A DNA stretch of 55,574 bases. Origin: Patescibacteria group bacterium. GTDB lineage: Bacteria; Patescibacteriota; Patescibacteriia; Magasanikbacterales; GWA2-37-8. Positions 6,830 to 42,222 of the stretch are shown here, in pieces. A program made the position numbers and the translations under genes. Position 1 is the stretch's first letter; each line of letters starts with the position of its first letter. Where the stretch lies: the NCBI GenBank assembly GCA_004321885.1, contig SCQK01000001.1, positions 1 to 55,574 on the forward strand, given 5' to 3'. Under the pieces are notes generated by a model. The model was not told the origin of the DNA. It saw nothing but the letters and a program-made list of their open reading frames with translations, and made no database searches.

Positions 6830-6832
6830 CAG
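6803..6832. repeat. palindromic repeat family B core (CCCGACTAAGTCGGG) plus the ggaatgacag motif shared with family A
   Basis: tcccgactaagtcgggatcggaatgacag at the lspA 3' end / comM start. Confidence 0.7.
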
Positions 6833-13564: not shown

Positions 13565-14953
13565 TTACGCGCTCACGTAAAATTTCTGTTTGATAAACTC
13601 CATCTCTTGTTTTAAGCGCAAGTCGTTTTCTGTTTTTTTGCCGATTAGTTTGTCGGCGTGCATGGCTGTGGTGTGGTCGCGGCCACCCAACTCGTCGCCA
13701 ATGGCTGGGTAAGACATGTTTAGCTCACTGCGCATCAGGTGCATAATAATCTGGCGCGGCGCGGAGAAGCGCTTTTCGCGGCTCTGGCCCAGAATATCAC
13801 CCGAGGCAATGCCATAATAGGCGCAGACCGCGTCTATGATTTGTTGCGGGGTTACTGACCTCTGCATCAGCCGCGCTTCCATGCTGGCCAGCAAGTTTTT
13901 TACCGAATCCGGCGTGGGCTCGGTGTTTTTCAGTTGGTGGAAAGCCATGATTTTGTTGAGCGCTCCTTCCAGTTCGCGAATGTTTTTTTGGATAATGGTA
14001 GCCACCAGGCGCAAGATGTCTTCGGTGAGGGCGTAATTTTTCTCGGCGCACTTTTTTTGCAAAATGGCGATGCGAGTTTCCAAATCCGGCGGGGCTACAT
14101 CCACAATCATGCCCCACTCAAAGCGCGATTTCAGGCGGTCTTCCAGGGCCGGGATGGCCTTGGGTGGTCGGTCCGAGGTCATCACCACCTGCTTGTTCTG
14201 TTGGTGCAGTTCATTGAAGGTATGAAAAAAAGATTCCTGGGTTTTGTCTTTGCCGGAAATGAATTGAATGTCGTCTATGAGAAGCAGATCAATATTGCGG
14301 TAGCGGTTTTGGAAATTTTTGGCATTGCCTTCGCGCACCGAGGAGATGTAGTCGTTGGAAAATTTCTCGGCGCTGGCGTACATGACATTAAAGTGCGGCG
14401 CGTTTTTCAAAATATGATTGCCAATGGCTTGCAGGAGGTGGGTTTTGCCCAATCCCACCCCACCGTAAATAAAAAGCGGGTTATAGGATTCGCCGGGTTT
14501 GCGCACCACGGCCTGGGCCGCGGCAAAAGCCAGTTCAGTGCCGCTGCCGACCACGAAGTTGTCAAAAATATATTTGGGATTGAGGATGAATTCGCCGCCG
14601 GACTGACCCGTTGGAGGCGCCGGCGTTTCTAACGGGGTTTGGAAAGAATACTCGGCGCGCAGGGCGCCGGCTGCGGCGGCCGGCATGTTTTTGATATTGT
14701 AAATTTTGTATTCCAATTTTTTGATGGGCTTGCCCGTGATACGTTCCATTGATTGCACAATCATGTGGTGATACTTTTTTTCCAGCCAGGCTTTGTTGAA
14801 GGCGCTGGGCACGCAGAGCTCGGCCTGGTTGTCTTGGTAGTTTAGAATTCCGGTATTTTTAAACCAGGTCACGAAGTTTGGTTTAGAAATAGATAACTCT
14901 AATTCTGCCAGGACCGCTTGCCAGATGTCGGTGGTGTTCATACAAACATCCAA
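13565..14953 (-). CDS. dnaA: chromosomal replication initiator DnaA
   Basis: AAA+ Walker A GGVGLGKTHLL and a C-terminal DnaA-box-binding domain. TTG start. Confidence 0.95.
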   Translation of the reverse strand: MDVCMNTTDIWQAVLAELELSISKPNFVTWFKNTGILNYQDNQAELCVPSAFNKAWLEKKYHHMIVQSMERITGKPIKKLEYKIYNIKNMPAAAAGALRAEYSFQTPLETPAPPTGQSGGEFILNPKYIFDNFVVGSGTELAFAAAQAVVRKPGESYNPLFIYGGVGLGKTHLLQAIGNHILKNAPHFNVMYASAEKFSNDYISSVREGNAKNFQNRYRNIDLLLIDDIQFISGKDKTQESFFHTFNELHQQNKQVVMTSDRPPKAIPALEDRLKSRFEWGMIVDVAPPDLETRIAILQKKCAEKNYALTEDILRLVATIIQKNIRELEGALNKIMAFHQLKNTEPTPDSVKNLLASMEARLMQRSVTPQQIIDAVCAYYGIASGDILGQSREKRFSAPRQIIMHLMRSELNMSYPAIGDELGGRDHTTAMHADKLIGKKTENDLRLKQEMEFIKQKFYVSA

Positions 14954-14955
14954 GT

Positions 14956-14979
14956 GTCATTCCCGCGAAAGCGGGAATC
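14956..14979. repeat. palindromic repeat family A (GTCATTCCCGCGAAAGCGGGAATC)
   Basis: gtcattcccgcgaaagcgggaatc immediately upstream of dnaA. Confidence 0.8.
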
Positions 14980-15090
14980 TATTTTTGAAAGTTACCAATA
15001 CATTTTAGCACAGCGCTCCCGGTTGTCCAATACTGTCAAATCCGTTTGGGTGGATGAATTGTGGAAAAACTGTGCACAACTCTCTTCGCA

Positions 15091-22692: not shown

Positions 22693-22703
22693 ATAAGCAA
22701 ATT

Positions 22704-22731
22704 GTCATTCCCGCGAAAGCGGGAATCCAGG
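22704..22731. repeat. palindromic repeat family A
   Basis: gtcattcccgcgaaagcgggaatccagg, upstream of tig. Confidence 0.8.
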
Positions 22732-22854
22732 TTTGTCTGTTCAAGTTTAGCGAAACAGCGCGGAAAAGTCAATTATAGCTTGGGGGATTGATATTTACGC
22801 GGTTTTGTGTTATTTAAGTAAAGTTCACCTTGATAACTCAACCAGGAGGGAGAG

Positions 22855-24109: not shown

Positions 24110-26095
24110 TTACTTTATTAACAACCCCACAATCAACAGGGCCACGATGTTGGCCACTTTTATCATCGGATTGATGGCCGGGCCGGCCGTGTCTTTGTAT
24201 GGGTCGCCCACGGTATCGCCGGTAACAGCCGCCTGATGAGCGAACGAGCCCTTGCCGCCGTAGTTTCCTTTTTCAATGAATTTTTTGGCGTTGTCCCAGG
24301 CCCCGCCGCCGGTGGTCATGGAAATGGCGACGAACAAGCCGGTGATAATAGTGCCCATCAGCAGTCCGCCCAGGGCTTCTATACCCAAAAACCAACCAAC
24401 CAGCACGGGAATCAACACCGGAATGGCGGCCGGCAATATCATTTGTCCGAGCGCGCCCTTGGTCACGATGTCAGCCGCTTTACTGTAGTCGGGTTTGCCC
24501 GTGCCCTCCATAATTCCGGGGATCTCGCGAAACTGGCGGCGCACTTCTTCCACCACTTTGCCCGCCACTTTGCCGACCGATTCCATCAGCATTGAACCGA
24601 ATAAATACGGCAACAAGCCGCCGATAAACAGCCCGGTCAAAACCCACGGATTATCCAGCATGAATTTTACGCTGTCCGGAAGTTTGTGAGTGAAGTCCGC
24701 GAACAAAACCAGTGAAGCGAGCGCGGCGCTGGCAATGGCATAGCCCTTGGTGACGGCCTTGGTGGTGTTTCCCACCGCGTCCAGGGCGTCGGTTACTTCG
24801 CGCGCCTCGGCCGGCAGTCCGCTCATCTCGGCGATTCCGCCTGCGTTATCTGTAATCGGGCCATAGGCATCTATGGTCACGATAATGCCGGTAAGCGACA
24901 GCATGCTCACGGCGGCTACGGCTACGCCATACAAACCGGCCAGCCAAAAGGCGCCGAGAATTGAAGCGATGATAAGCAAAACAGGCAATGCCGTGGATTG
25001 CATTGATACGGCCAGACCGGCGATGACATTGGTGCCGTGCCCTGTTTCGCTGGCTTTGGCGATGCGTTTAACCGGGTTGTATTTTGTGGAAGTGTAATAC
25101 TCCGTAATCCAAACCATGGCCGCGGCCAGAATCAAACCGATAACTGAGGAAAGGTAAATTCTTGTCACGTCAAAATTTTCCGAACCGCCTATCAGCCAGC
25201 GCGTGATGGGGTAAAAAGCGATGAGCGATAATATGCCCGAAGCAATTAAGCCCTTGTACAGGGCGTTCATGATGTTTTGTTTTTTACCCAGACGGATGAA
25301 GAATGTGCCGATGATGGAAGCGATGATTGAAGCGCCGCCCAAAATCAAGGGATAGATAACAACCTTGTCGTTTCCGACAAATAGCAAACTGCCCAGAACC
25401 ATGGCCGCGATGACAGTAACCGCGTAGGTCTCAAACAAGTCCGCGGCCATGCCCGCGCAGTCGCCCACGTTGTCGCCCACGTTGTCAGCGATAACCGCCG
25501 GGTTGCGCGGGTCGTCTTCGGGGATGCCTTTTTCCACCTTGCCCACCAGGTCAGCGCCCACGTCAGCCGCTTTGGTAAAGATGCCGCCGCCGATACGGGC
25601 AAAAACCGAAATCAAACTGCCGCCGAAACCCAAACCAATGAGCGCGGACAAGTCATGGGTCAAAAGATAAAAACCGGAAACTCCAAGCAAGCCCAGACCC
25701 ACCACCAAGAGGCCGGTGATGGAACCACCGCGCACCGCCACGTTTAACGCTCGTTTTAATCCGGTTTTAGCCGCTTCGCTGGTCTTCAAATTAGCGCGCA
25801 CAGACACGTTCATGCCGATAATGCCGGCCGCGGCTGAAAGCACGGCGCCGACCACAAATCCGAAACCGGTAATCCAGTCCACGAATAAACCAAGTAAAAC
25901 AAAAACAACGAGCGCGACTACGGCGATAGTTTTGTATTGGCGCCCCAAATAGGCCTTGGCGCCTTCTTGGATGGCTTTAGCGACGGCTTTCATTTTTTCG
26001 TCGCCGGCCGGCTGTTTGTTTACCCAAACAATGAGTACCACCCCGTACGCTATGGCCAGCGCCGCCGGCAACAGCGCGAATAACGCGATGAGCAT
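24110..26095 (-). CDS. hppA: membrane-bound H+/Na+-translocating pyrophosphatase
   Basis: [41 protein letters not shown] and ~15 TM helices. Confidence 0.95.
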
Positions 26096-26183: not shown

Positions 26184-27494
26184 ATGCGTTACCGCTTACT
26201 TTTAAGAACTCTGCGGCTCTTAATTTATATTAAGAGGTTTTTTTGGTTTTTGGGCCGGTATTTTTTGTTTGTTTTCGGCTGGATTTTGAGGCCGCTCTGG
26301 CGTCTGTTGGGCTATCTGTTTTACAAACTGGGCTGGCTGTATAAAAAAATTGCCAGCGCCGGCAGTTTGGACAGCCAACTGTTGAAAAGGGATTATCTAC
26401 AGCTGATTGTTTTTGCCCTGCTTTTTATCGCGGCTTTGCCCCACACCAAATTTTTGGCATCTGCCGGCAGTTTACTGCCCGGGCAAAAAACCATTGCCTA
26501 TGCCATTTTCGGCCAGAATCAGGAATTCGCGGTGGAGGAAATAATAGCGCAGGAGGAATTTTATGAAACGCCGGCCTGGCGCGAAGGTTTGCTTTCGGCC
26601 GGCAGCAATTTGGGCGCCGGTGTTTGGCAAAAACAGGACTTGGCCGGGGCCGTGGCCGGCGGTACGGCTATTTCCAAGCCAATGCTTATTCCAGGAGCCG
26701 CTATTGGCGGCACGCGCGACAAGACCATAGAATACATTGTGGAGCCGGGCGATTCGCTGGGCAGTATCGCGGTTCAGTTTGACGTGGACGTGGCCACTAT
26801 TTTGTGGGAAAACAATTTGAGTGTTCGTAACTACATCAGGCCCGGGGATGTTTTGCGCATTTTGCCGGTCTCAGGTTTGACGCATATCATCAAGCGCGGG
26901 GATAATTTGAAAAAAATCACGTTGGCCTATGAGGCGAAAACGGAAGACATCGTAAAATTCAACAAGCTGAAAAGCGACGGCACGGATTTGATTATCGGCG
27001 AGAAAATCATCATACCCGGCGGGGTAAAGGCCGCGGCGCGGGCCATCGCGTCCGCGCCCAGAACCAGCCAGGTCTTCCGTCGCGTGGCCGTGCCGCCGCG
27101 CTCGCTGGGCGCGCCATCGCTTTTGGGATTTTTGTGGCCCACGGCCGCGCGCACCATTACCCAGTATTTTAGCTGGCGGCACAGCGCCTTGGATATTGCC
27201 GGCCCCATGAGCACGGCCATCTACGCTTCCAAAAGCGGCGCCGTGGAAAAATCCCAGTGCGGCTGGAACAGCGGCTATGGCTGTGTGATAATCATCAGTC
27301 ACGGCGGCGGAGTGAAAACATTGTACGGGCACAATTCGCGCCTATTGGTTTCGGCTGGCGACAGCGTGGAGCGCGGGCAAACCATCGCCCTAATGGGCAA
27401 TACGGGCCGTGTCTACGGGCGCACCGGCATTCATACGCATTTTGAGATAAATATAAACGGCCGGCGGGTGAATCCGCTGGGGTATGTTCGTTAG
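26184..27494 (+). CDS. membrane-anchored peptidase with two LysM domains and a C-terminal M23 domain
   Basis: Two LysM repeats (YIVEPGDSLGSIA..., HIIKRGDNLKKIT...) and the M23 motifs HSALDI ... GNTGRVYGRTGIHTHFE. Confidence 0.85.
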   Translation: MRYRLLLRTLRLLIYIKRFFWFLGRYFLFVFGWILRPLWRLLGYLFYKLGWLYKKIASAGSLDSQLLKRDYLQLIVFALLFIAALPHTKFLASAGSLLPGQKTIAYAIFGQNQEFAVEEIIAQEEFYETPAWREGLLSAGSNLGAGVWQKQDLAGAVAGGTAISKPMLIPGAAIGGTRDKTIEYIVEPGDSLGSIAVQFDVDVATILWENNLSVRNYIRPGDVLRILPVSGLTHIIKRGDNLKKITLAYEAKTEDIVKFNKLKSDGTDLIIGEKIIIPGGVKAAARAIASAPRTSQVFRRVAVPPRSLGAPSLLGFLWPTAARTITQYFSWRHSALDIAGPMSTAIYASKSGAVEKSQCGWNSGYGCVIIISHGGGVKTLYGHNSRLLVSAGDSVERGQTIALMGNTGRVYGRTGIHTHFEININGRRVNPLGYVR

Positions 27495-27570: not shown

Positions 27571-27643
27571 GGCCACGTGGTGAAGTAGTTAACACGGCAG
27601 TCTGCAAAACTGCTATGCATGGGTGCGACTCCCATCGTGGCCT
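27571..27643 (+). tRNA. tRNA-Cys (GCA)
   Basis: Hand-folded cloverleaf: 7-bp acceptor ggccacg/cgtggcc, anticodon stem gcagt/actgc, loop cTGCAaa, T-stem atggg/cccat, and U73 discriminator. The T-loop TGCGACT has G at position 55. No encoded CCA. Confidence 0.7.
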
Positions 27644-27650
27644 CGCTTTG

Positions 27651-27750
27651 GCGGAAAACAAAAAACCACCCGTAGTTTCCTCCTACCCAAATGCGCATCA
27701 TAATGCGTGCTTGGGCAGGGGCGGGTGGTTTTTCGTTTCGCCCCATTATT
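27651..27750. terminator. long GC-rich hairpin with T-runs on both strands (bidirectional terminator-like), copy 1 of a two-member repeat
   Basis: aaaaaccacccgtagtt...gggcaggggcgggtggttttt. Confidence 0.5.
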
Positions 27751-28160
27751 TTGTTTTGGTTGGGGGCGGCCCTCCTAGAACCGCCGGAAGCGTGTGGAGT
27801 AGCGTGATGTCTCATCGGTGAAGAAGTGGCGCACGCCCATTCCCAATAGGGTCATGGCCAATTGGCCACTGAGGCGCATGACATCTTGCGCCGCCCCCCT
27901 AGATAAACCCCAGAAGGTTTCCACCACTTCCCGCAGGGTGGCGATTTTCTCCATGTCTACCTCGGCGTGTTGTTGAGGGTCAAAGAACGTTTCGCCTTAC
28001 GGAGGAGAGTCCGCATCTGCCGCGATATCGCGTACATTAGCACACCCTCCCATACATGGAGTGAGATAGGCCACCTATTAACTGTCGGCCACATGGCTAT
28101 ATCCTTTCTTTCGTTGTTGGTTGTGGCTGTATCCGTAAAAGTATATCAAAGAATCGCGCA

Positions 28161-28262
28161 AAAAACAAAACCACCCGTAGTTCCCCGAACCACAAAGGGT
28201 TCAGGGGCCTCCTGCCTGAAAGGTCGTCTGCGGCGGCCGCTCGGGCAGGGGCGGGTGGTGAT
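28161..28262. repeat. copy 2 of the long hairpin element (shared ends accacccgtagtt / gggcaggggcgggtggt, different core)
   Basis: aaaaccacccgtagttcccc...ctcgggcaggggcgggtggtg. On the minus strand it is followed by a T-run, so it would act as a terminator for the small minus-strand ORF. Confidence 0.5.
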
Positions 28263-28286
28263 GTTGGGTTCACCCTTGGGAAGGAA

Positions 28287-28472
28287 CTACTTGCGGGGCG
28301 GGGAGGGGGCGGGAATCTTGCCGGAGATGTGAATCGTCGGCAAGACCATCTTGGGCCGGGGCGGCGGTTCGTCACAAGCCTTCGCCAGGACCAGGAAAAT
28401 GGTCGCGGCGAGAGTGGTCCCAAGGAGCGCGCAAAAAACGCCCATCACCTTGTCAGCTGTTTTGTCCGTCAT
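28287..28472 (-). CDS. possible small membrane protein (~61 aa)
   Basis: AGGAGG RBS 7 nt before ATG (MTDKTADKVMGVFCALLGTTLAATIFLVLAKA...). One TM helix. Followed by hairpin copy 2. Confidence 0.3.
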   Translation of the reverse strand: MTDKTADKVMGVFCALLGTTLAATIFLVLAKACDEPPPRPKMVLPTIHISGKIPAPSPPRK

Positions 28473-28592
28473 CCAAATCCTCCTGGATTGTTGATTGTTT
28501 TTTCGGGCGAACCAGATATTCATACTATGAATAGCTTTTTAGTCAAGGTTTTAGCTTGCGAAAAGCGCAATTTGCGAGTAAAATAAGGGCGT

Positions 28593-31271
28593 ATGAATCG
28601 CTTAATAATTTTAGACGGCAATGCCATAGTGCATCGCGCCTACCATGCTTTGCCTCCGCTGACCACCAAAGACGGCAAGATGGTGAATGCGGTTTATGGA
28701 TTCGCTTCCATGCTGTTAAAGGTTTGGCAGGATTTGAAACCCACGCACATCGCGGTAACTTTTGACATGGCTGGGCCCACTTTTCGGCACGTTAAATTTA
28801 AAGAATATAAAGCCACGCGCGTGAAGGCGGCTCAAGAATTGTACGACCAGATTCCCCTGACGCACGAACTGGTGTCCGCGTTCGGTCTGGCGATTTACGA
28901 AAAAAAGGGTTATGAGGCCGATGATGTCATCGGCACGCTCGTGGAAAAAACCAGAGACAGCGGTGCCGAGATTTTTATTGTTACCGGCGACAAAGACACC
29001 TTGCAACTGGTGGGCGGCAACGTGAAAGTGTACACCTTGCGCAAGGGCATGAGCGACATCGCGGTTTATGATACCGAGGAAGTGCGGCGCAAGTTTGGTT
29101 TCGGGCCGGAGCTGGTGGTGGATTACAAGGCCCTGGCCGGCGACCCTTCGGACAATATTCCCGGCGTGCCGGGCATTGGCGAAAAGACGGCGACCGAGTT
29201 GATTAAAAAGTTTGGCGGGATTAAGGAGATATATAAAAGAATAGAGAATAAAGAATTTAGAATAAAAGGTGAAATTAAAGATGGCGTGATAAAAAAGTTG
29301 GAAGCTGGCAAAGACAGCGCCCAAATGAGCAAAGAGCTGGCGACTTTGGATTGCGCCGTGCCTGGTTTGGATTTTAAGTTTGATGACTGCAAATTAAAGG
29401 AACTTGATAAAGAAAAAATTATAAAACTTTTCAGCGAATTGGAATTCGTGTCATTGCTCAAGAGAGTGCCGGAGTTCGCGCAGTCGGAAATTGTAAAATC
29501 CCAGTCGCGAAAAATAAAGGACAAAGAAGCGGATTTCAAATTCAATGAAATTAGCGATAAGACGGGATTGGGGAAGCTGAAAAAAATAATACGAGAAAAA
29601 AAGATTTTTGCCTGCCGTTATTTGTCCGGTTTGGTTTTTGTCGTCGGACACGAAGGATTTTTCGTGAAAAAAGAAATGGTTGGCGAGTGCGAGGAAATAT
29701 TTACCGACCCAGAGCTGGAATTGGTGGGGCATGATTTGAAACAGATAGTGAAGGCCATTAAAACAAACCCTCCCCTATTAGGGGAGGGACAGAGGGTGGG
29801 GTATGTCGCCAACAAACTTTTTGACGTCATGGTGGCTTCGTATCTGCTGGCCCCAGGCAGTCGGGCGCATGGCGCGGCTGACATTGTTTTTAAGGTTTTG
29901 GGCAAGCAGTTGCCGGCCGGCACTGGTCAGGAAAGCTTGTTTGGCGTGGACGCGAAGGAGGCGGCGCAAGAGTTGTATTTGCTGGCGCAAGCCGCGGACA
30001 AGCTGAAAGCCGAGTTGATGAAAATTGACGATTATGGCTTGTTTCAAAAGGTGGAAATGCCGCTGGTGTTGGTTTTGGCCGAGATGGAGCTGAACGGAAT
30101 GGCGGTTGATTTGGATATTTTGAGCGAGCTGTCTAAAAAAGTCAGCGGCGAAATTAAAAGCGTGAGCAAAAAGATTTATAAAATGGCGGGCGAGGAGTTT
30201 AACATCGCTTCGCCCCTGCAGTTGCGCGAAGTTTTGTTTGAGAAAATGAATATCCCGACCGAGGGGATAAAAAAAGGCAAGACCGGTTTGTCCACTTCGG
30301 CCGAAGAGCTGGAAAAAATGCGCGGCCTGCATCCGGTAATTGAAGAAATAGAGAATTACCGCGAGCTGGCTAAATTACAAAACACCTATATTGATGTTTT
30401 GCCGACTTTGGTGGACAAAAAAACCGGACGCATCCACACGACTTTTAATCAGACCGTGGCGGCTACCGGCCGGTTGTCCAGTTCAGACCCGAATTTGCAA
30501 AATATTCCCATCCGCACCGAGCTGGGCCAGGAAGTGCGCAAAGCGTTTGTGGCCGGAAAGGGAAATTTGCTGGTGGGCGCGGATTATTCGCAGATAGAAT
30601 TGCGCATCGTGGCGTCACTAGCCGAAGACCAAAAGATGATTGAGATTTTTGAGGCCGGCGAAGACATCCACCGGGCTACGGCCGCGGCTATAAACAACGT
30701 ACCTTTGGAAGCGGTGACCAAAGAGATGCGTCGCGCGGCAAAAGAAGTGAACTTCGGTGTGCTCTATGGCATGGGCGTGCATGGCCTCTCCTGGCGCGCG
30801 GGTATTCCTTATACCCAGGCCAAAGATTTTATTGACAAATATTTTCAGCAGTTTAGCGGAGTGAAAAAATATATTGACCGCACTTTGGAACTGGCCAGAA
30901 AAGACGGTTATTGCGAGACCCTGTTTGGCCGCCGCCGCTATATTCCCGAGCTCAATTCCGACAATCATCAGTTGCGCGCGGCCGCCGAGCGCATGGCCAT
31001 CAATCATCCGGTGCAAGGCACGGCCGCTGACCTGATCAAAATGGCGATGATTGAGGTTTCTAATGTCATTACGAGGAGCGAGGCGACGAAGCAATCCCCT
31101 TCGCCCAAACTCATCCTCCAAGTCCACGACGAATTGGTTTTGGAAGTCAAGGCCGACCAGGCCCAGGCCGTGGCCGCCGAAGTAAAAAAGGCCATGGAAA
31201 GCGTTATCAAACTCCGCGTGCCCGTGGAAGCCCACGTCAAAACCGGCCAGAGTTGGTGGGAACTAAAATGA
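28593..31271 (+). CDS. polA: DNA polymerase I
   Basis: 5'-3' exonuclease N-terminal domain (ILDGNAIVHRAYHA), a 3'-5' exo-like region, and polymerase motifs A, B and C (DYSQIELRI, RRAAKEVNFGVLYG, VHDE). Carries in-frame insertions from repeat families D and C. Confidence 0.95.
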   Translation: MNRLIILDGNAIVHRAYHALPPLTTKDGKMVNAVYGFASMLLKVWQDLKPTHIAVTFDMAGPTFRHVKFKEYKATRVKAAQELYDQIPLTHELVSAFGLAIYEKKGYEADDVIGTLVEKTRDSGAEIFIVTGDKDTLQLVGGNVKVYTLRKGMSDIAVYDTEEVRRKFGFGPELVVDYKALAGDPSDNIPGVPGIGEKTATELIKKFGGIKEIYKRIENKEFRIKGEIKDGVIKKLEAGKDSAQMSKELATLDCAVPGLDFKFDDCKLKELDKEKIIKLFSELEFVSLLKRVPEFAQSEIVKSQSRKIKDKEADFKFNEISDKTGLGKLKKIIREKKIFACRYLSGLVFVVGHEGFFVKKEMVGECEEIFTDPELELVGHDLKQIVKAIKTNPPLLGEGQRVGYVANKLFDVMVASYLLAPGSRAHGAADIVFKVLGKQLPAGTGQESLFGVDAKEAAQELYLLAQAADKLKAELMKIDDYGLFQKVEMPLVLVLAEMELNGMAVDLDILSELSKKVSGEIKSVSKKIYKMAGEEFNIASPLQLREVLFEKMNIPTEGIKKGKTGLSTSAEELEKMRGLHPVIEEIENYRELAKLQNTYIDVLPTLVDKKTGRIHTTFNQTVAATGRLSSSDPNLQNIPIRTELGQEVRKAFVAGKGNLLVGADYSQIELRIVASLAEDQKMIEIFEAGEDIHRATAAAINNVPLEAVTKEMRRAAKEVNFGVLYGMGVHGLSWRAGIPYTQAKDFIDKYFQQFSGVKKYIDRTLELARKDGYCETLFGRRRYIPELNSDNHQLRAAAERMAINHPVQGTAADLIKMAMIEVSNVITRSEATKQSPSPKLILQVHDELVLEVKADQAQAVAAEVKKAMESVIKLRVPVEAHVKTGQSWWELK
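29768..29802. repeat. family D repeat, in-frame in polA
   Basis: ccctcccctattaggggagggacagagggtggggt, translating to NPPLLGEGQRVGYV. Confidence 0.8.
31065..31104. repeat. half-copy of the family C element, in-frame in polA
   Basis: gtcattacgaggagcgaggcgacgaagcaatccccttcgc, translating to VITRSEATKQSPSPK. Confidence 0.6.
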
Positions 31272-31794: not shown

Positions 31795-32709
31795 ATGGGA
31801 CAACTAATAGACGGAAAATTGATTGCCAAGCATATTGAAGCCGAGACCGCAAGGAGAGTGGCTTTGCTCAAGGAGAAAGGAGCGAAACCAAAGCTTGCGG
31901 TTTTTTTAGTCGGCGAAGACAAGCCGTCGCAAAAGTACGTCAAGAAAAAAGGCGAGGCCGCGCAGCGCGTGGGCCTGGATTTTGTTTTACATGAGTTGGC
32001 GGGCGATATTGGCATGGCCGAGTTGGTGGAAAAAATAGAAGACGCCCAGCATAATGAGGAGCTGTCGGGGATAATTATTCAGCTGCCTTTACCCGAACAT
32101 CTGTACACTTCCGAAGTGTTAAACGCCATTCATCCGGAAATTGACGTGGACTGTTTGACCGACGTGAACTTGGGCAAGTTGGTGATGAAGACCAACCACA
32201 TTGTGCCGCCAACACCGGGCGCGGTCATTACTATAATAAAGGATTTGGGCGTGGATTTGGTGGGGAAAAACGTTGTCATTATCGGCGCCGGCGCCTTGGT
32301 AGGCAAGCCGCTTTCCATAATGATGATGAATGAAAGGGCGAGCGTGACCACTTGCAACAGCGCCACGCGCGACACCAAAGAAAAATGCCTGTCCGCCGAT
32401 ATAATCGTGACCGGCGTGGGTAAAAAAGATTTATTGCGCGGTGGTATGGTGAAAGAAGGCGCCATTGTGATAGACACGGGCGTGGCTTTCGTGGATGGGA
32501 AAATGTATGGTGATGTGAACGTGGACGAGGTGATGGAGCGCGCCGCGCACGTGACGCCTACTCCCGGCGGTGTGGGCCCCTTAACCGTGGTGCGCCTTTT
32601 GTGGAATACGGTGCTGTGCGCGGAAAGAAATTTGGAACTTGGGCTGAAACCGCATTCGCGAGAAAGAATAAAATACGAAGGGCATCGGCCGGCGAAGTAT
32701 AAGCTTTAA
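31795..32709 (+). CDS. folD: bifunctional methylene-THF dehydrogenase / methenyl-THF cyclohydrolase
   Basis: IDGKLIAKHI...VGEDKPSQKYVKKK...GxGxxVGKP Rossmann motif. Confidence 0.9.
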   Translation: MGQLIDGKLIAKHIEAETARRVALLKEKGAKPKLAVFLVGEDKPSQKYVKKKGEAAQRVGLDFVLHELAGDIGMAELVEKIEDAQHNEELSGIIIQLPLPEHLYTSEVLNAIHPEIDVDCLTDVNLGKLVMKTNHIVPPTPGAVITIIKDLGVDLVGKNVVIIGAGALVGKPLSIMMMNERASVTTCNSATRDTKEKCLSADIIVTGVGKKDLLRGGMVKEGAIVIDTGVAFVDGKMYGDVNVDEVMERAAHVTPTPGGVGPLTVVRLLWNTVLCAERNLELGLKPHSRERIKYEGHRPAKYKL

Positions 32710-32712
32710 TTA

Positions 32713-32792
32713 CCCCTCCCTAACCCTCCCCTTATAAAGGGGAGGGAAACGTATTGTTCCTCCCCCTTTATAAGGGGGAGGCGAGGAGGGGG
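32713..32792. repeat. tandem pair of family D repeats in the folD-purA intergenic region
   Basis: cccctccctaaccctccccttataaaggggaggg ... cctccccctttataagggggaggcgaggagggggt. Confidence 0.8.
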
Positions 32793-32799
32793 TAAACAT

Positions 32800-34116
32800 A
32801 TGTCACAACTTACTGTCGTGGTTGGCGCCCAGTGGGGCGATGAGGGCAAGGGGAAAATAACCGACTATCTGGCCAAAGACGCCGACTTTGTGGTTCGTTT
32901 CCAAGGAGGCAACAACGCCGGACATACGTTGGTAGTTGGGGATAAAATTTACAAACTACACCTGATTCCATCGGGTGTTTTGTATCCGGGCGCGGTTTCA
33001 ATAATCGGCAACGGCGTGGTGGTGGACCCGCTCACCCTGCTAAAAGAAATCAGCGAGTTTAAAAAAGACGGCCTGGCGCTTAATCTAAAAATCAGCAACC
33101 GTTGTCATGTCATCATGCCATATCACATTGCCTTGGATGGGGCTTTGACCGGACATCAGGGCGGGCTGGCCGCCGGCAGCACCAACCGCGGCATTGCCCC
33201 GGTCTGCGCCGATAAAAGCTATCGTCACGGCATCCGGCTGGGCGATTTGCTGGAACCGGAAATGCTTCGGGAAAAATTAGCCGTGTCATACAATTTCAAC
33301 AAAGCGATTTTGGAAAAAATTTTTAACACGCCTTTCGCCCTGTCGGAAGAAGAAATTTATAATCAGTTTTTGGATTATGGCAAATTATTGGCGCAGTACA
33401 TTGACGATACTGATGTTTTGCTTTATCGCGCCTACAAAGAAGGCAAAAATATCTTGTTTGAAGGGGCGCAGGGTTTGTCCTTGGATCTGGATGTCGGCGT
33501 GTACCCGCATACCACCAGCACCAACACGTTGGCCAGCCATATCGGCGTGGGCACGGGCGTGGGATACGACGGGAATAAACGCGTAATCGGAGTGGCCAAG
33601 GCATACGTGAGCCGCGTGGGCACCAGTCCTTTTATCACCGAACTGCCCGAAGAAGAAGCCAAGGCCTTGCGCGACAAGGGCGGCGAATACGGCACGACCA
33701 CTGGCCGTCCGCGCCGCGTGGGCTGGCTGGATTTGGTGCAACTGCGGCAGGCCGTGCGCTGTAACGGGCTGACTGAATTGGCGCTCATTAAATTGGACGT
33801 GCTAGCCGATTATGAAAAAGTGTTGGTTTGCACCTCGTATGATATAGATGGAAAAGACACCAGAGAAATGCCGGCCAGTTTGTCGCAGTTGCGCCGGGCC
33901 AAACCGGTTTATCAAGAATTCACCGGTTGGCCGGTGATAGATGGAACGGCTTTGAAACAAGGCGGGTTTAAGGGGTTGCCGCTTGAGATAAAAAACTTTG
34001 TGGAGTTTATTGAGAAAGAAACAGAGTGTCCGATCAGTATGTTGTCGTTCGGACCGGAGCGGGAACAAACCATTATTCGTGTCATTGCGAGCGAAGCGAA
34101 GCAATCCCATTCGTAA
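32800..34116 (+). CDS. purA: adenylosuccinate synthetase
   Basis: QWGDEGKGKITD, GGNNAGHT and GTTGRG motifs. The C-terminal 12 aa are encoded by the family C repeat. Confidence 0.95.
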   Translation: MSQLTVVVGAQWGDEGKGKITDYLAKDADFVVRFQGGNNAGHTLVVGDKIYKLHLIPSGVLYPGAVSIIGNGVVVDPLTLLKEISEFKKDGLALNLKISNRCHVIMPYHIALDGALTGHQGGLAAGSTNRGIAPVCADKSYRHGIRLGDLLEPEMLREKLAVSYNFNKAILEKIFNTPFALSEEEIYNQFLDYGKLLAQYIDDTDVLLYRAYKEGKNILFEGAQGLSLDLDVGVYPHTTSTNTLASHIGVGTGVGYDGNKRVIGVAKAYVSRVGTSPFITELPEEEAKALRDKGGEYGTTTGRPRRVGWLDLVQLRQAVRCNGLTELALIKLDVLADYEKVLVCTSYDIDGKDTREMPASLSQLRRAKPVYQEFTGWPVIDGTALKQGGFKGLPLEIKNFVEFIEKETECPISMLSFGPEREQTIIRVIASEAKQSHS

Positions 34117-34163
34117 TTATAGGGATTGCTTCGGTCCCGACTAAGTCGGGGCCTCGCAATGAC
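34081..34163. repeat. composite nested palindromic element (family C arms gtcattgcgag...gaagcaatccc / gggattgcttcg...ctcgcaatgac enclosing a family-B core)
   Basis: Spans the purA stop and the annotated purL start. Confidence 0.8.
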
Positions 34164-36540
34164 AACATCAAATATGATAACGACTGATTTCACGAAAATG
34201 GATGAAGCGCAAATAAAGGAATTTTTGGTTGCCAACAGAATCGCGCTGACGGTGGAAGAAATTTTGAAGATCCAAAACGAAATCTTGAAACGGCCACCCA
34301 CGCTGGCCGAGTGTATTTTGTGGTCCATTCAGGGATCAGAGCACAGCTCGTACAAATCCAGTCGTCCGCACTTGAAACAATTTCACACCAGCGGTCCCAA
34401 CGTAATACTCGGCCCCAGTGAAGACGCCGGCATTGTGGAAATTTGCTGCGACAACGAGGGCCGAAAATACGGCGTAGTGATAAGCCACGAATCGCACAAT
34501 CATCCGTCGCAAGTGGTGCCCTACGAGGGCGCGGCCACGGGCGTAGGCGGCAATGTGCGCGATGTCTGCTGCATGGGCGCGAAAGTAATCGCCTGCGCCG
34601 ACCCTCTGCGCTTCGGACAAATTGACAGTAATAAATCCAAATGGGTGCACGAGGGCGTGGTCTCGGGCATTGCCGGCTATGGCAATCCAATCGGCGTGCC
34701 AAACATCGGCGGCGACTTGTATTACGACGAATCCTACAATGAAAATTGTCTGGTCAACATTGTTACTTTGGGTGTCTTGCGCGAAGACGACATCATACAC
34801 TCGCGCGCGCCGCAAAACGCCGATGGTTATGATTTGGTTTTGGTCGGCAAGCCAACTGACAACAGCGGCTTTGGTGGCGCCAGTTTTGCTTCGTTGGAAT
34901 TAAAAGAAGAAGAAAAAGAACTCAACAAGGGCGCGGTGCAGGAGCCGAACGCTTTTTTGAAGCGCCATTTGCTCAAATCCACCTACGCGCTTTTCAAAAA
35001 AATAAAAGAGGGCGGTTTGATGGATAAAGTGGGTTTCAAAGATTTGGGCGCCGGAGGAATTGCCTGCGCTTCAGTGGAATTGGCCGACGCGGCCGGCTAT
35101 GGCGCCGAAGTGGATATTGATAAAATCCCCAAGGGCATGAACGGACTTAATCCGGCCGTGATTTTGTGCTCCGAGACGCAGGAAAGATTTATGTGGGTGA
35201 GTCATCCGGACGTGACACCGGTTATTTTGGAGCATTATAATGAAATCTTTGATTTGCCCGGCATTGCCGAAGGCGCGCGAGCGGCGGTGGTGGGGAAAAT
35301 TCGCGCTGACGGGCGCTATGTGGTGACAGCCGGCGGAGAAGAAATCGTGAGCGCGCGAGCGCAAGACGTGACACGGGGATTATTGTACAATCGGCCATGG
35401 GAAAAACCCGAGAAAAAATTGAGTGAACCAAACTTGCCCGAGCCAACCGATTACAGTGAAATACTTTTAAAAATTTTGGCCCACGAAAATGTGGCCTCGC
35501 GTTTGCCGGTTTATGAACAGTACGACAAGCAAGTGCAGGGCATCACAATGATTGAATCGGGCCGGGCTGACGCGGGCGTTTTGCAGCCATTTAAGGATGA
35601 CAGTTACCCGGAGGAAATTCGGCAAACCGGCGTCGCTTTGTCAGTGGACCAAAATCCGCGCTACTCCAAGATTGATTCTTATTGGGGGGCGGTAAACGCG
35701 GTAGTGGAAAGCTGCCGCAATGTGGCGGCTGTCGGCGCTGTGCCGTGGGCGTTGACCGATTGTTTGTGCTATGGCAATCCGGAAAAGCCAACCCAGATGT
35801 ATGAATTCGTGGAAGGGGCGCGCGGGGTGGCCGAGGCGGCCAAGGGTTTGCATTTGAAGGACTTCCCGGAAAATCCGGTGCCGATTGTTTCGGGCAATGT
35901 GTCGCTTTACAACGAAAGCAAAGGCAAACCCATCGCTCCCAGCGCCATAATTTCATGCACCGGAAAATTGAGCGACGTGAAGTGCGCGATTGACATGTCG
36001 TTTAAAAAAGCCGACTCAATTATTTTTATGGTCGGCGAGCGCAAAGACGAATGCGGGGGCAGTGTTTATTATAATTTGTTTAAAGAATTGGGAGCCAATG
36101 TACCCAAGCCGGATTTGGCGGAAGCGGAAAAACAAATTTTTGCCGTGACTGACGCGATAGAGGCTGGTCTGGTTTTGGCGGCTCACGATATTTCCGACGG
36201 CGGCTTGGCCGTCTGCTTGGCCGAGATGAGTTTTGGAAATGAGATTGGTTTCGTCTGTCATTCCCGCGAAAGCGGGAATCCAGGGTCGCAACTTCGCCCC
36301 GACAAAGTTCTTTTTTCCGAAACCGGCGGTTTTGTTTTGGAAGTGTCGCCGGAAAACCGCGGCGCAGTGGAAGAAATTTTCGCCAAACGCGGAGTAAAAA
36401 TCTTTGCCATCGGAAAAACCGCCTGTCATTCCGGGCTTGACCCGGGATCCATAACAACGTTAAAGTTTGGAGATGTAATCAACGTACCTTTAAAAGAAGC
36501 AAAAAAAGCGTGGACAGAGGGTTTGTGGGGCAAGCTGTAA
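34126..36540 (+). CDS. purL: phosphoribosylformylglycinamidine synthase subunit PurL
   Basis: PurM-like duplicated domains of FGAM synthase II. The true start is probably MTTSNM at ~34159. Contains an in-frame family A repeat (VCHSRESGNPGSQ). Confidence 0.9.
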   Translation: MLRSRLSRGLAMTTSNMITTDFTKMDEAQIKEFLVANRIALTVEEILKIQNEILKRPPTLAECILWSIQGSEHSSYKSSRPHLKQFHTSGPNVILGPSEDAGIVEICCDNEGRKYGVVISHESHNHPSQVVPYEGAATGVGGNVRDVCCMGAKVIACADPLRFGQIDSNKSKWVHEGVVSGIAGYGNPIGVPNIGGDLYYDESYNENCLVNIVTLGVLREDDIIHSRAPQNADGYDLVLVGKPTDNSGFGGASFASLELKEEEKELNKGAVQEPNAFLKRHLLKSTYALFKKIKEGGLMDKVGFKDLGAGGIACASVELADAAGYGAEVDIDKIPKGMNGLNPAVILCSETQERFMWVSHPDVTPVILEHYNEIFDLPGIAEGARAAVVGKIRADGRYVVTAGGEEIVSARAQDVTRGLLYNRPWEKPEKKLSEPNLPEPTDYSEILLKILAHENVASRLPVYEQYDKQVQGITMIESGRADAGVLQPFKDDSYPEEIRQTGVALSVDQNPRYSKIDSYWGAVNAVVESCRNVAAVGAVPWALTDCLCYGNPEKPTQMYEFVEGARGVAEAAKGLHLKDFPENPVPIVSGNVSLYNESKGKPIAPSAIISCTGKLSDVKCAIDMSFKKADSIIFMVGERKDECGGSVYYNLFKELGANVPKPDLAEAEKQIFAVTDAIEAGLVLAAHDISDGGLAVCLAEMSFGNEIGFVCHSRESGNPGSQLRPDKVLFSETGGFVLEVSPENRGAVEEIFAKRGVKIFAIGKTACHSGLDPGSITTLKFGDVINVPLKEAKKAWTEGLWGKL
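36257..36284. repeat. family A repeat, in-frame in purL
   Basis: gtcattcccgcgaaagcgggaatccagg. Confidence 0.8.
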
Positions 36541-36896: not shown

Positions 36897-38060
36897 ATGT
36901 CAAACATCTCTTATTCCGATTCCGGCGTCAATTACCAGGCGCTTGATCCGGTGAAAAAATTGGCGCAAATCGCGGCCCGGTCCACGGCTCGTCATTTGTC
37001 GTCGTCCGGTTTCACCGAATCAGAAGACACGCGCGGCGAGTCGGCTTATGTTTGGCAGCAAGGCGACCTCCTGATGGCCTCGGTCATTGAAGGCCTGGGC
37101 ACCAAAAATTTGGTGGCTGACGCCATGCGTAAAATTACCGGCAAGACCTATTACGATATTGTCAGCCACGATACTGTGGCTACGATTATAAACGATCTTG
37201 TTTCGGTGGGCGCCAAGCCGCTTGCTCTCTTCGCTTACTGGGCCGTGGGCAAAAGCGAATGGCTGGCCGACGCGGAAAGGACAAAGGATTTGGCGGACGG
37301 CTGGAAGTCGGCTTGTGATTTAGCCCAAGTTTCCTGGGGAGGCGGCGAAACCCCCGCCTACGCCGGCATCATTAATCCGGAGACCATTGATTTGGCAGGT
37401 TCGGCCGTGGGTATTATTAAAGATAAAAATAATTTGCTCACGGACAAAAAAATACAGGCCGGAGACAGGATAATTTTTTTGAAAAGCAACGGCATAAACG
37501 CCAACGGTTTGTCGCTGGCGCGCGCGATTGCAAATACCCCCTCCTCGCCTCCCCCTTATAAAGGGGGAGGAAATCGTCTCCCTCCCCTTTATAAGGGGAG
37601 GGTTGGGGAGGGGTATGGTGCCAAGCTGCCAAGTGGCGTAATGTACGGAGAAGCATTACTCACAAAAACAAACATCTACGCGAAATTGGTACAGGACTTG
37701 CAGGCGGCAGAAGTAGATATACATTATATTACAAATATCACCGGACATGGATTGCGTAAAGTTATGCGCGGTAGGCCGAATTTTACATACGTAATAGAGA
37801 AAATTTTTGAACCGCTGGAATTATTTATTTTTATGCAAGGTCAGGCCGGGCTTTCGGATTTTGAAATGTATCAGACGTTTAACATGGGGCAGGATTACGC
37901 GATTTACTTATCAGCCGCCGACGTGGCCCGCGCTTTGGAAGTGATAAAACAAAATAATTTTACAGGCATTGAGGCGGGTTTTGTGGAAGCGGGCGAAAAG
38001 CGCGTGATAATCAAACCGAAGAATTTAGAGTATAAAGGAGAGACGTTGGATTTGAGATAA
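36897..38060 (+). CDS. purM: phosphoribosylformylglycinamidine cyclo-ligase (AIR synthetase)
   Basis: SYSDSGVNYQALDP and PurM N- and C-terminal domain patterns. Contains a tandem in-frame family D insertion (SPPPYKGGGNRLPPLYKGRVGEG). Confidence 0.85.
   Translation: MSNISYSDSGVNYQALDPVKKLAQIAARSTARHLSSSGFTESEDTRGESAYVWQQGDLLMASVIEGLGTKNLVADAMRKITGKTYYDIVSHDTVATIINDLVSVGAKPLALFAYWAVGKSEWLADAERTKDLADGWKSACDLAQVSWGGGETPAYAGIINPETIDLAGSAVGIIKDKNNLLTDKKIQAGDRIIFLKSNGINANGLSLARAIANTPSSPPPYKGGGNRLPPLYKGRVGEGYGAKLPSGVMYGEALLTKTNIYAKLVQDLQAAEVDIHYITNITGHGLRKVMRGRPNFTYVIEKIFEPLELFIFMQGQAGLSDFEMYQTFNMGQDYAIYLSAADVARALEVIKQNNFTGIEAGFVEAGEKRVIIKPKNLEYKGETLDLR
37537..37614. repeat. tandem family D repeats, in-frame in purM
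   Basis: cccctcctcgcctcccccttataaagggggagg...cctcccctttataaggggagggttggggaggggt. Confidence 0.8.
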
Positions 38061-42130: not shown

Positions 42131-42132
42131 TT

Positions 42133-42214: not shown

Positions 42215-42222
42215 AAAATTCT

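Follow-up and report, generated by a model that had tools for sequence, protein, structure and literature searches.

A composite hairpin repeated behind small minus-strand ORFs between tRNA-Cys and polA of a Patescibacteria bacterium is most likely a conserved terminator module

Rho-independent terminators, including bidirectional ones, have a G+C-rich stem with a U-tract directly behind it, in the sense of the gene that they follow, and are usually short simple hairpins. Integron cassettes consist of an ORF and an imperfect hairpin (attC) and stand in tandem in the same orientation, and their ORFs are small, unrelated and mostly orphans; attC sites fold on the bottom DNA strand and have a conserved outer stem and a variable terminal structure, and attC clusters with no integrase are known as CALINs. 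Phage morons are small self-contained units (promoter, ORF, terminator) of deviant composition that lie between conserved syntenic genes and whose presence differs among relatives. Finally, repeats of the REP/BIME, MITE and Rickettsia-palindromic-element type are hairpin-forming palindromes, some nested in one another, that can serve as terminators, and REPs carry a GTAG beside the stem.

Here we describe a locus that resembles each of these systems in part. The window, by which we mean the whole stretch of 55,574 nucleotides that was analysed, comes from the MAG of an uncultured, Magasanikbacteria-like Patescibacteria bacterium, with NCBI locus tags EPN28_* and reads SRR8426592. Between its tRNA-Cys and polA genes two small minus-strand ORFs, ORF A and ORF B, are each followed by a copy of one hairpin module (hp1 lies 3' of ORF A and hp2 3' of ORF B), an arrangement that an earlier note on this DNA had recognized. 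With Rho-independent terminators the module shares the G+C-rich stem and the U-tract, in the sense of the gene before it; moreover, hp1 separates two convergent genes, tRNA-Cys and ORF A, and is flanked by an A-run on one side and a T-run on the other, in the manner of a bidirectional terminator. Unlike such terminators, however, the module is longer (65–90 nt) and composite, one copy has an extra branch, its sequence is conserved across lineages above the neighbouring tRNA, and paralogous copies lie behind unrelated genes. The units also recall phage morons in that they are compact and autonomous, equipped with an SD site, a promoter-like site and a putative terminator, in their deviant composition (GC3 0.71–0.79), and in their position between conserved syntenic genes with a presence that differs among relatives; they differ in that they lie in a CPR bacterial chromosome with no nearby phage genes and no PHROGs matches.

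The spacer begins directly after the tRNA-Cys(GCA) gene (27571–27644, plus strand; called by ARAGORN and by the Rfam tRNA model at 62 bits), which is its left anchor, and ends at the start of polA at 28593. Its length of 948 bp agrees with the ~950 bp given in the earlier note. The description there of a GC-rich islet holds insofar as GC is slightly raised (0.542 compared to a window mean of 0.500, sd 0.042), but the excess is mild, and 14% of equal-sized windows are as rich or richer. A stronger compositional signal is GC3, which is 0.73 in ORF A and 0.79 in ORF B when compared to 0.60–0.65 in the genes that adjoin the spacer. The genes around the spacer (PPase, M23 and polA) are syntenic with those of relatives. 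A polA promoter-like site detected by promoter scan at 28556..28584 on the plus strand (TTGCGA, a 17-nt spacer and TAAAAT) is taken as the right-hand limit of the inserted segment. Upstream of polA, the window and a related locus, L003, have in common both the TAAAAT -10 hexamer and a AAGGTTTTAG motif, and the hexamer is also present in another, L004. The lineage-specific DNA in the spacer amounts to ~0.8 kb, roughly 27745–28540.

ORF A (27775..27954, minus strand) encodes 59 aa, rather than the 56 aa from ~27953 that had been read earlier, and has GAGG 5 nt before its ATG. ORF B (28287..28472, minus strand) has AGGAGG 6 nt before its ATG and, just as the earlier note had it, encodes 61 aa from 28472 with a TM helix; the good ribosome-binding sites noted there are likewise present on both. 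(Note that only about a quarter of the genes in the window have an SD site.) The product of ORF B has one N-terminal TM- or signal-like helix (KD19 = 2.35; one TM segment) and a Pro-rich tail, and that of ORF A was modelled by AlphaFold2 from its single sequence as one long helix (pLDDT 86), with no TM segment predicted. In both ORFs GC3 > GC1 > GC2 (GC1/2/3 of 0.53/0.47/0.73 in ORF A), and the codon scores lie above those of 94–98% of spurious ORFs. In particular, the score of ORF A, 0.17, is exceeded by 6% of spurious ORFs and stands at the 10th percentile of real-gene chunks, and that of ORF B, 0.25, is exceeded by 2% of spurious ORFs. ORF A is annotated as a gene in NCBI (EPN28_00135) and in Logan; ORF B is called as a gene on a Logan contig, which is its sole source in the protein collection, with no NCBI source.

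Both ORFs are orphans. Searches with ORF A among 5.8 billion proteins or 1.84 billion representatives returned only ORF A itself, and the protein search with ORF B likewise returned itself alone; the conservation that the earlier note had looked to is thus not seen for either. Nothing above noise was found for the spacer ORFs in Pfam, PHROGs, NCBIfam, PADLOC or PDB, and there is no similarity between ORF A and ORF B or between ORF B and the peptide of a related locus, L002. (Weak family matches were set aside: DUF4777 reached only E = 0.22, and an acetolactate-synthase model scored 16 bits where its cut-off is 363. Two matches from the full HMMER scan are to translated eukaryote-like tandem repeats and are spurious.) As neither ORF has a homologue, the case that they are coding depends on statistics trained on 55 kb of sequence, by which both look coding. 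A further minus-strand ORF of 45 aa (27957..28094) ends 2 nt before the start codon of ORF A; its codon score of -0.17 is in the spurious range, it has no family matches, and it is probably non-coding. Upstream of ORF B we identified a putative minus-strand promoter at 28518..28546, composed of TTGACT (28546–28541), a 16-nt spacer and TATGAA (28524–28519), which overlaps a perfect palindrome, ATTCATA-C-TATGAAT (28518–28532), read by eye and from the inverted-repeat list. The consensus promoter scan did not flag this site, nor did it return a convincing promoter for ORF A.

The two hairpins, hp1 (27650..27733, minus strand) and its paralogue hp2 (28155..28263, minus strand), are 505–530 bp apart. 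ACCACCCGTAGTT occurs exactly twice, at 27665 and 28170, as does GGGCAGGGGCGGGTGGT, at 27713 and 28243, and both elements stand in the same order and orientation in hp1 and hp2, with identical ends of 13 and 17 nt. The earlier note was therefore right to describe two long hairpins with identical ends and different cores; its length of ~95 bp for both, however, does not match the measured cores of 65 nt in hp1 (27665–27729) and 90 nt in hp2 (28170–28259), or about 85–110 nt with flanks. In hp1, which is identified by its fold and by a CM R1 match of 104.7 bits, P1 is formed by ACCACCCG/CGGGUGGU (27665–27672 / 27722–27729) and encloses a long P2-P3 stem; UUUUUUGUUUU directly follows P1 on the minus strand, and UUUUUCGUUU follows on the plus strand. 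In hp2 (CM match of 83.9 bits) P1 and basal P2 are the same, the apical stem is rewritten, and a nested 25-nt mini-hairpin is added at 28183–28207; UUUUGUUUUUUG directly follows P1 on the minus strand, and there is no U-tract on the plus strand. T-runs, said earlier to follow each hairpin, thus do so for both copies on the minus strand and for hp1 only on the plus strand. The terminator scan also flagged 28196–28174 (minus strand) with a T-run, which is a sub-hairpin of hp2 only.

On the minus strand hp1 has an MFE of -49.1 kcal/mol (z = -6.9) and hp2 one of -58.5 kcal/mol (z = -4.3); the corresponding z-scores of the plus-strand folds against shuffles are -5.8 and -5.2, and none of 200 shuffles folded as well as hp1 or hp2. 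Between the stop codon of ORF A and hp1 we also folded a small CGCCCC...GGGGCG hairpin (27739..27768, minus strand), which belongs to the common 3'-UTR module. Of note, several other hairpins in the window equal or exceed hp1 and hp2 in stability.

A third copy of the hairpin is present in the MAG L189, from the metagenome JGI 3300029959. It occupies the equivalent place between tRNA-Cys and polA, again on the 3' side of a minus-strand ORF, and UUUUUU comes after it (CM 77 bits; blastn E = 2e-9). This copy is single, with no pair, and folds at -40.1 kcal/mol (z = -5.3, minus strand) with UUUUUUGG directly after P1; as with hp1, its minus-strand fold is more stable than its plus-strand fold. 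At the place equivalent to 27739..27768, L189 has a CCCCC...GGGGG hairpin. The ORF before the L189 hairpin encodes a lipoprotein-like protein of 110 aa that is unrelated to ORF A and ORF B and has no similarity to the whole spacer in six frames, and a TTGACT -35 hexamer lies upstream of it in the same arrangement as at ORF B. Sequence homology among the hairpin units starts right after the stop codon. Across the three copies 88.5% of cells are paired, compared to 31–47% with partners slid, and both sides have changed in 7 of the 29 pairs (compensatory changes), compared to 0–1 with partners slid. At columns 18:50 and 24:44, G-U pairing gives standard pairs on the minus strand only, and its conservation argues that the ORF-sense strand is the favoured one. 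Nucleotide identity between hp1 and the L189 copy is 78%, whereas it is 66% for tRNA-Cys, 67% for polA (42% at third codon positions) and 58% for M23. Conserved sequences in its loops and bulge are GCCCCUG, AAGCAC and AGGAG. These hairpins form a genuine structured family that extends to a distant relative, and are not the ordinary terminators that the earlier note had named as part of a refutation.

This family is absent from Rfam, a scan of which returned only the tRNA in the region. A CM search of all 197 loci found, beyond the three members, only generic A-run/stem/T-run terminators of at most 32 bits. There were no exact or near matches to the hairpin in 1.6 Mb of related loci, no matches to a strict two-part hairpin pattern in genome, metagenome and viral contig collections, and none to a relaxed pattern in the viral contigs, the only collection to which it was applied. 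(Single-arm 16/17-mers gave 27 matches in viral contigs without a partner arm, bar one true tRNA and one chance case, and were taken as chance.)

The tRNA-Cys gene lies upstream of polA in many Magasanikbacteria and Falkowbacteria loci, and those that keep the M23-tRNA-Cys-polA neighbourhood are flanked by the same core genes in each case. The spacer ranges from 5 to 1742 bp in these relatives and is only 32–193 bp in several of them. (The closest PolA in all collections searched has at most 66% identity.) Small ORFs in the spacer, here and in relatives, all have a GC3 of 0.71–0.79, in hosts whose own GC3 is 0.39–0.60, and this independence of host composition suggests that they may be foreign cargo. 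The tRNA-Cys/polA junction is a recurrent site of lineage-specific GC3-rich inserts, for which a foreign origin is plausible, and most of the mini-genes found there are predicted to encode membrane-anchored or secreted peptides.

We consider it probable, though well short of certain, that the spacer comprises two small minus-strand transcription units, each of which ends in a paralogous composite Rho-independent terminator. In the first unit a divergent promoter beside the polA promoter would drive ORF B, whose product would be a single-pass membrane or secreted peptide of 61 aa, and transcription would end at hp2. In the second, ORF A, which would encode a helical peptide of 59 aa, would be transcribed from its own weak promoter or by read-through, with hp1 as the end point. 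The two hairpins would be paralogous copies of one conserved RNA module of about 85–110 nt that forms the 3' UTR, with a small C-run/G-run hairpin, an 8–9-bp G+C-rich closing stem P1, a long inner stem P2-P3, a 5–6-nt bulge and a U-tract directly after P1. Because hp1 has an A-run on its other side and faces the convergent tRNA-Cys, it probably acts in both directions, so that it would terminate tRNA-Cys on the plus strand as well as ORF A on the minus strand; in L003 and L004 the same site is occupied by a simple tRNA-Cys terminator. (Note that termination, expression of the ORFs and the foreign origin of the cargo are read here from sequence and are put forward conditionally.)

Consistent with termination, the transcript of the gene before hp1, hp2 or the L189 copy would in each case fold into a stable G+C-rich stem-loop with a U-tract immediately behind its stem. 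Moreover, the pair of small-protein/terminator cassettes proposed in the earlier note fits the anatomy of the locus, with SD sites, coding-like codon usage and GC3 periodicity, and a hairpin and U-tract on the ORF strand. What was not found is a short simple hairpin near the U-tract, with a stem of about 5–14 bp and a loop of 3–8 nt; instead, P1 spans 49–74 nt of inner structure. A branched structure of 65–90 nt that is closed by a distal 8-bp stem is atypical of a terminator, and a plain terminator need not keep its sequence to the degree seen between hp1 and L189. It also speaks against two terminator-bounded units that the plus strand offers the better pairing for the apical stem of hp2, and that ORF A is without a convincing promoter. 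The strong conservation of primary sequence is left unaccounted for by a terminator and might, speculatively, lead to a protein-binding or recombination site.

We regard the hairpin as a modest new RNA element, most likely a terminator, and not as a classic integrated element. If two terminator-bounded units are indeed present, a small unannotated RNA structure family is added to the poorly charted non-coding repertoire of CPR/Patescibacteria, and the tRNA-Cys/polA junction is marked as a recurrent entry point for compositionally foreign mini-genes. A cargo of membrane or secreted peptides could matter for the episymbiotic lifestyle. Gene callers are uneven on such mini-genes, as ORF B, known from Logan only, illustrates.

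That the hairpins are instead another MITE/REP/PATE-like palindromic family, inserted or copied locally and with an incidental terminator role, is unlikely, if not negligibly so. At least four other palindromic families are present in the window with 4–6 copies each, common outer stems and different or nested cores; the mini-hairpin nested in hp2 parallels the presence of one of them (family W) inside another (family X) at 34129–34154, and the hairpin motif has GTAG beside the stem, as in REPs. In a variant of this explanation hp2 and hp1, in direct orientation, could be the subterminal hairpins of a non-autonomous IS200/IS605-type element that carries ORF A. Unlike REP- or MITE-type repeats, however, the known copies are undispersed: there are two in the 55.6 kb of the window, both within 600 bp, the third is at the same locus elsewhere, all known copies stand 3' of an ORF with a U-tract, and neither the 1.6 Mb of related loci nor the strict-pattern scans yielded more. 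Moreover, the window is without a TnpA/RAYT-like protein, ORF A matches no family, and L189 has one hairpin only. (A literature search on the palindromic families of the window returned nothing relevant. Some of these families also occur within coding sequences.)

A little more doubtful is the idea that the hairpins are recombination or capture sites of an integron attC-like cassette system whose recombinase is encoded elsewhere. Each ORF with its hairpin would then be a mobile cassette, and downstream of tRNA-Cys a common landing site would have received an array of two cassettes in the window and of one in L189. Much of the architecture is as this predicts: the same module stands behind three unrelated, small and mostly orphan ORFs with homology from the stop codon on, two units follow each other in tandem on one strand, conservation of the hairpin exceeds that of the core genes on either side, cargo and host differ in GC3, the spacer is variable among relatives, and, just as in attC sites, a conserved outer stem is combined with a variable terminal structure. 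However, R'' (RYYYAAC) and R' (GTTRRRY) are absent on either strand from the stem base, ACCACCCG/CGGGTGGT, which is flanked by A/T runs. A role at the RNA level is suggested by the conserved U-tract and by G-U pairing on the ORF-sense strand, whereas attC sites fold on the bottom DNA strand. Furthermore, only three copies are known in all, at a single locus and with one or two units per genome seen, and a promoter-like site of its own precedes ORF B. In the window and in L189 the spacer adjoins no integrase or other recombinase; neither an adjacent IntI nor the at least two attC sites within 4 kb that define a CALIN were found. (The distance between hp1 and hp2 satisfies CALIN spacing only if they are attC sites.) The more specific proposal that the hairpin is the recognition or recombination module of an integrase-in-trans system, which loads small GC-rich genes for membrane or secreted peptides between tRNA-Cys and polA, is quite improbable; it would explain why unrelated ORFs share a 3' module, why this module is better kept than the tRNA, and why the site is polymorphic among lineages.

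Very unlikely is a decayed element that integrated site-specifically at tRNA-Cys, with the hairpins as att or regulatory relics. The spacer does begin at the 3' end of a tRNA gene, its cargo has, as in relatives, a foreign composition, and the segment is absent from several relatives, whose spacers are short; spacer length differs widely among relatives, and one related locus, L193, has a partial duplicate of the tRNA-Cys 5' half just upstream of the gene. However, the classic form of the remnant integrated element that the earlier note had raised is unsupported, with syntenic flanks and no att repeat or nearby integrase: comparison of the 3' 45 nt of the tRNA with 27645–28700 gave a best local score of 7.0–7.5 against a shuffled null of 8.4 ± 1.0, so that the expected repeat of the tRNA 3' end is not seen at the far border. 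We found no integrase, excisionase, phage or plasmid genes, no PHROGs or PADLOC matches, no blastn match of the spacer to phages and plasmids, and no pseudogene fragments in the six-frame translation.

Finally, the notion that the hairpins are degenerate tRNA or tRNA-like genes, in which 'CCACCCG-UA-GUU' resembles an acceptor stem and the start of a D-arm, is effectively refuted: although a viral tRNA starts with CCACCCGTAGTTCAACGG and ARAGORN, when relaxed to 80% of its usual threshold, reports hp2 (minus strand) as tRNA-Leu(CAG), the acceptor stem of this candidate is mispaired, its D stem has two pairs only, its anticodon stem is broken and its T loop is 9 nt long, ARAGORN at default and the Rfam tRNA model (E up to 10) return nothing, hp1 is too short (63 nt) and is without a TΨC motif, and the covarying helices form a nested hairpin rather than a cloverleaf.

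The source of the window is an uncultured Patescibacteria (CPR) bacterium, kin of Candidatus Magasanikbacteria. Across the collections searched, no other PolA is more than 66% identical to its own, and the sole further record of its DNA is a Logan contig (run SRR8426592) identical to the window across 6267 bases. An H+-pyrophosphatase gene (24110-26095, minus strand) and a LysM/M23 peptidase gene (26184-27494, plus strand) precede tRNA-Cys(GCA) (27571-27644, plus strand), which is separated from polA (28593-31271, plus strand) by a 948-bp spacer. On our best reading, this spacer carries a pair of small orphan genes, probably of foreign origin, that each end in one copy of a conserved terminator/3'-UTR hairpin. 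The hairpins, mini-ORFs and cassette-like anatomy described in the earlier note are real. Its "GC-rich islet" is an overstatement: the GC of the spacer is above the mean (0.542 compared with 0.500 +/- 0.042 for the window), but the excess is only about one standard deviation, and 14% of windows of equal size have a GC at least as high. (Note that positions 4001-5500 and 7001-8000, presumably the first two islets of that note, have a GC of 0.57-0.62 and overlap long ORFs at 4117-5337, minus strand, 406 aa, with an AGGAG SD site, and at 6826-8352, plus strand, 508 aa.)

The two hairpins, hp1 (27650-27733) and hp2 (28155-28263), do have identical ends and different cores. Exact copies of ACCACCCGTAGTT at 27665 and 28170, and of GGGCAGGGGCGGGTGGT at 27713 and 28243, are the only two of each in 55.6 kb and are alike in order and orientation, and homology between hp1 and hp2 extends about 15 nt beyond each side. 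The cores measure 65 and 90 nt, rather than about 95 bp each as first thought, and hp2 has an extra nested 25-nt mini-hairpin (28183-28207) and an apical stem of different sequence. Both folds beat dinucleotide shuffles on both strands (z = -4.3 to -6.9; none of 200 shuffles was as good), and in a 100-nt window scan several hairpins of the window were equal or stabler. T-runs, reported after each hairpin, follow both on the minus strand, which is that of the ORFs, but only hp1 on the plus strand.

Upstream of each hairpin is a minus-strand mini-ORF with the expected ribosome-binding site. ORF A (27954 to 27775) has GAGG 5 nt before its ATG and encodes 59 aa, not 56; ORF B (28472 to 28287) has AGGAGG 6 nt before its ATG and encodes, as originally described, 61 aa with a TM helix, seen as a single hydrophobic segment (KD19 = 2.35). 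SD sites are thus found at both, compared with about one in four of the long genes in the window. (Strong SD sites in the window tend towards GC-rich genes.) With a codon log-odds model trained on 35 long ORFs from the window, ORF A scored 0.17 (6% of spurious ORFs were higher; 10th percentile of real-gene chunks) and ORF B 0.25 (2% higher; 20th percentile), while all alternative spacer ORFs fell within the spurious range. GC1/2/3 values are 0.53/0.47/0.73 for ORF A and 0.56/0.50/0.79 for ORF B. These sequence statistics favour both ORFs being coding. The search for homologues proposed earlier came back empty: in a word-indexed search of 5.8 billion proteins each query matched only itself, and neither had a match above noise in Pfam, PHROGs, NCBIfam, PADLOC or PDB. 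Exhaustive HMMER against 1.84 billion representatives returned for ORF A just two long tandem-repeat translations, which we rejected as artefacts. A single-sequence structure prediction for ORF A gives one long helix (pLDDT 86), a result that would suit a genuine small protein and says little beyond that. In the protein collections ORF A is EPN28_00135, and ORF B is represented by a Logan assembly only, without an NCBI entry; given its AGGAGG, TM helix and coding-like codon score, ORF B is probably a small gene missed in annotation.

A third copy of the hairpin, AAAAAACCACTCACGAAATTCTCCTATCCAAATTCAGATTATTATCTGTGCTTGGACAGGGGCGCGAGTGGTTTT, is present in L189 (JGI 3300029959), the tRNA-Cys/polA locus of a relative whose PolA is 66% identical to that of the window. 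It follows tRNA-Cys and the small terminator of that gene, and on the minus strand it has a 110-aa ORF before it and UUUUUU after it. Outside the hairpin (75.6% identity over 78 nt, E = 2e-9), the spacers of the window and L189 have no significant DNA similarity, and the ORFs upstream of the hairpin are unrelated. A covariance model built from the three copies scored them at 105, 84 and 77 bits and found nothing more above 34 bits in 1.9 Mb (the window and fetched loci), the remaining matches being the hp1 reverse strand and generic A-run/stem/T-run terminators. In the three-sequence alignment 88.5% of cells are paired, compared with 31-47% after a shift of the partners by 1-3 columns, and compensatory change on both sides with pairing kept affects 7 of 29 pairs, compared with 0-1 when slid. 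By eye, such compensations occur in the G+C-rich closing stem P1 (C:G to U:A), in the long inner stem P2 (C:G to U:A) and in the apical stem (G:C to A:U; C:G to G:C). On these comparisons the hairpin is a conserved family; read as a terminator/3'-UTR hairpin, it is a newly recognised one. In all three copies the homologous module begins directly after a UAG stop codon and includes a small C-run/G-run hairpin ahead of the main structure. Because G-U pairs occur at two positions of the minus strand, in two of the copies or in all three (the plus strand would give C·A mismatches), and because the minus-strand fold is the stabler for hp1 and the L189 copy, the folded molecule is most likely RNA of the ORF-sense strand.

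This anatomy is most simply explained by a module that serves as a 3' UTR and closes in a composite Rho-independent terminator. Hairpin hp2 would terminate the ORF B unit, whose putative promoter (TTGACT-N16-TATGAA) is divergent from that of polA; the arrangement recurs in L189, where the -35 hexamer is TTGACT. Hairpin hp1 would terminate ORF A and, since it has a plus-strand U-tract and occupies the position of the simple tRNA-Cys terminator of relatives, probably the tRNA-Cys transcript too. (A perfect palindrome, ATTCATA-C-TATGAAT, at 28518-28532, overlaps the -10 element proposed for ORF B; TATGAAT recurs at 28592-28598, spanning the polA start codon, and ATTCATA at 27429. The palindrome may be an operator within the control region between the divergent ORF B and polA.)

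A terminator requires structure rather than sequence, and the sequence conservation of the hairpin, unexpected on the terminator account, is a real loose end. Copy hp1 is 78% identical to the L189 copy (61 of 78 nt), whereas identity between the window and L189 is 66% for tRNA-Cys, 67% for polA at the nucleotide level (42% at third codon positions, near saturation) and 58% for M23. Thus either the hairpin sequence is strongly constrained, as a site of protein binding or of processing might be, or the module moved laterally later than the divergence of the core genes.

It is possible that the hairpins are REP/MITE-type repeats, given that the window has at least four further palindromic families (X, Y, Z and W; 4-6 copies each) with shared ends and differing cores, some copies being nested in each other and some lying within coding sequences. 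"Identical ends, different cores" is thus a pattern that this genome shows generally, and the nested mini-hairpin of hp2 conforms to it. Known copies of the hp family, however, occur at one locus only, behind an ORF and with a U-tract, and none is dispersed in the window and fetched loci. Family X (34081-34165, 42131-42215 and 53616-53700; also 30907 and 31065-31100) is mainly intergenic, has an outer stem GTCATTGCGAG...CTCGCAATGAC and an inner module GAAGCAATCCC...GGGATTGCTTCG with otherwise differing cores, folds with extreme stability (z = -5.7 to -8.4) and has matches in about 12-20 of 160 related CPR loci. Its half-copy at 31065-31100 is in frame within polA, encodes 'VITRSEATKQSP' and occupies a loop of variable length among PolA relatives (P0005 has a longer insert there, starting 'VIARP...KQSP'), resembling insertion of Rickettsia palindromic elements into coding sequence. 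Family Y (TACCCC...CCCCCTTATAAAGGGGG..., CCCCCTTATAAAGGGGG-type) has six copies (2328-2369, 2445-2486, 6588-6629, 32708-32795, 37532-37620 and 47795-47836), of which two are 85-nt double hairpins (32710, 37534) and several lie, by coordinates, within long ORFs (2246-4012, 36897-38060). Family Z (GTCATTCCCGCGAAAGCGGGAATC, also written TGTCATTCCCGCGAAAGCGGGAATC) has five plus-strand copies (14952-14987, 22700-22735, 36253-36288, 44257-44292 and 45035-45070), some within long ORFs, and is present in seven related loci. The mini-palindrome W, CCCCGACTAAGTCGGGG, has six (6798-6823, 34129-34154, 47010-47035, 50101-50126, 50255-50280 and 54576-54601) and no matches in the related loci; the second is nested within an X element, and two sit in the copies of a 47-nt direct repeat (50091 and 50245; 154 bp apart).

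That the hairpins belong to a cassette-type, attC-like system has a low probability: conservation above that of the core genes and the unrelated ORFs in front would fit, but the hairpins lack the R''/R' motifs of attC sites and have no recombinase near them, and both the conserved U-tract and the G-U pairs, biased towards the sense RNA, speak against it. A classic integrated element, suspected from the adjacent tRNA, is unsupported, as the spacer has no direct repeat of the tRNA 3' end on either strand (best local alignment 7-7.5, below the shuffled null of 8.4 +/- 1.0), no recombinase, phage or plasmid genes, no pseudogene fragments in any frame and no DNA similarity to phage or plasmid records.

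The position itself, judged from gene order in relatives, is a hotspot. The PPase-M23-tRNA-Cys-polA neighbourhood is kept, and the tRNA-Cys-to-polA spacer is very variable (5, 32, 64, 79, 127, 146, 193, 367, 589, 675, 1064, 1742, 1750 and 2300 bp where tRNA-Cys shares the polA strand). The longer spacers that were examined hold a 56-aa TM peptide (L002), a roughly 190-aa ORF resembling a membrane protein, as read from its sequence (L003), a 110-aa lipoprotein-like ORF (L189) and a lactate dehydrogenase gene (L193). GC3 of the small ORFs at the site is 0.71-0.79 regardless of that of the host (0.71 compared with 0.39 in L189, 0.75 with 0.47 in L002, and 0.73 and 0.79 with 0.60 in the window), and three of four have a TM or signal segment. 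This composition points to foreign cargo, and the earlier suspicion about the site was therefore partly right despite the failed att check. (In L002, within 4745-5111, the peptide gene is on the plus strand with its own TTGACA/TATAAT promoter and terminator, and the same spot in L007 holds a 335-aa ORF, at 1399-2406, with a GC3 of 0.70 compared with 0.43 for its host and without a Pfam match.) In L193 (GCA_017973895.1), where a 570-bp GC-rich stretch accompanies the Ldh gene between tRNA-Cys and polA, the intact tRNA-Cys (1186-1258) is preceded, at a distance of about 60 nt, by a partial duplicate of its 5' half (1092-1127; identical at about 31 of 34 nt), which may be an integration footprint.
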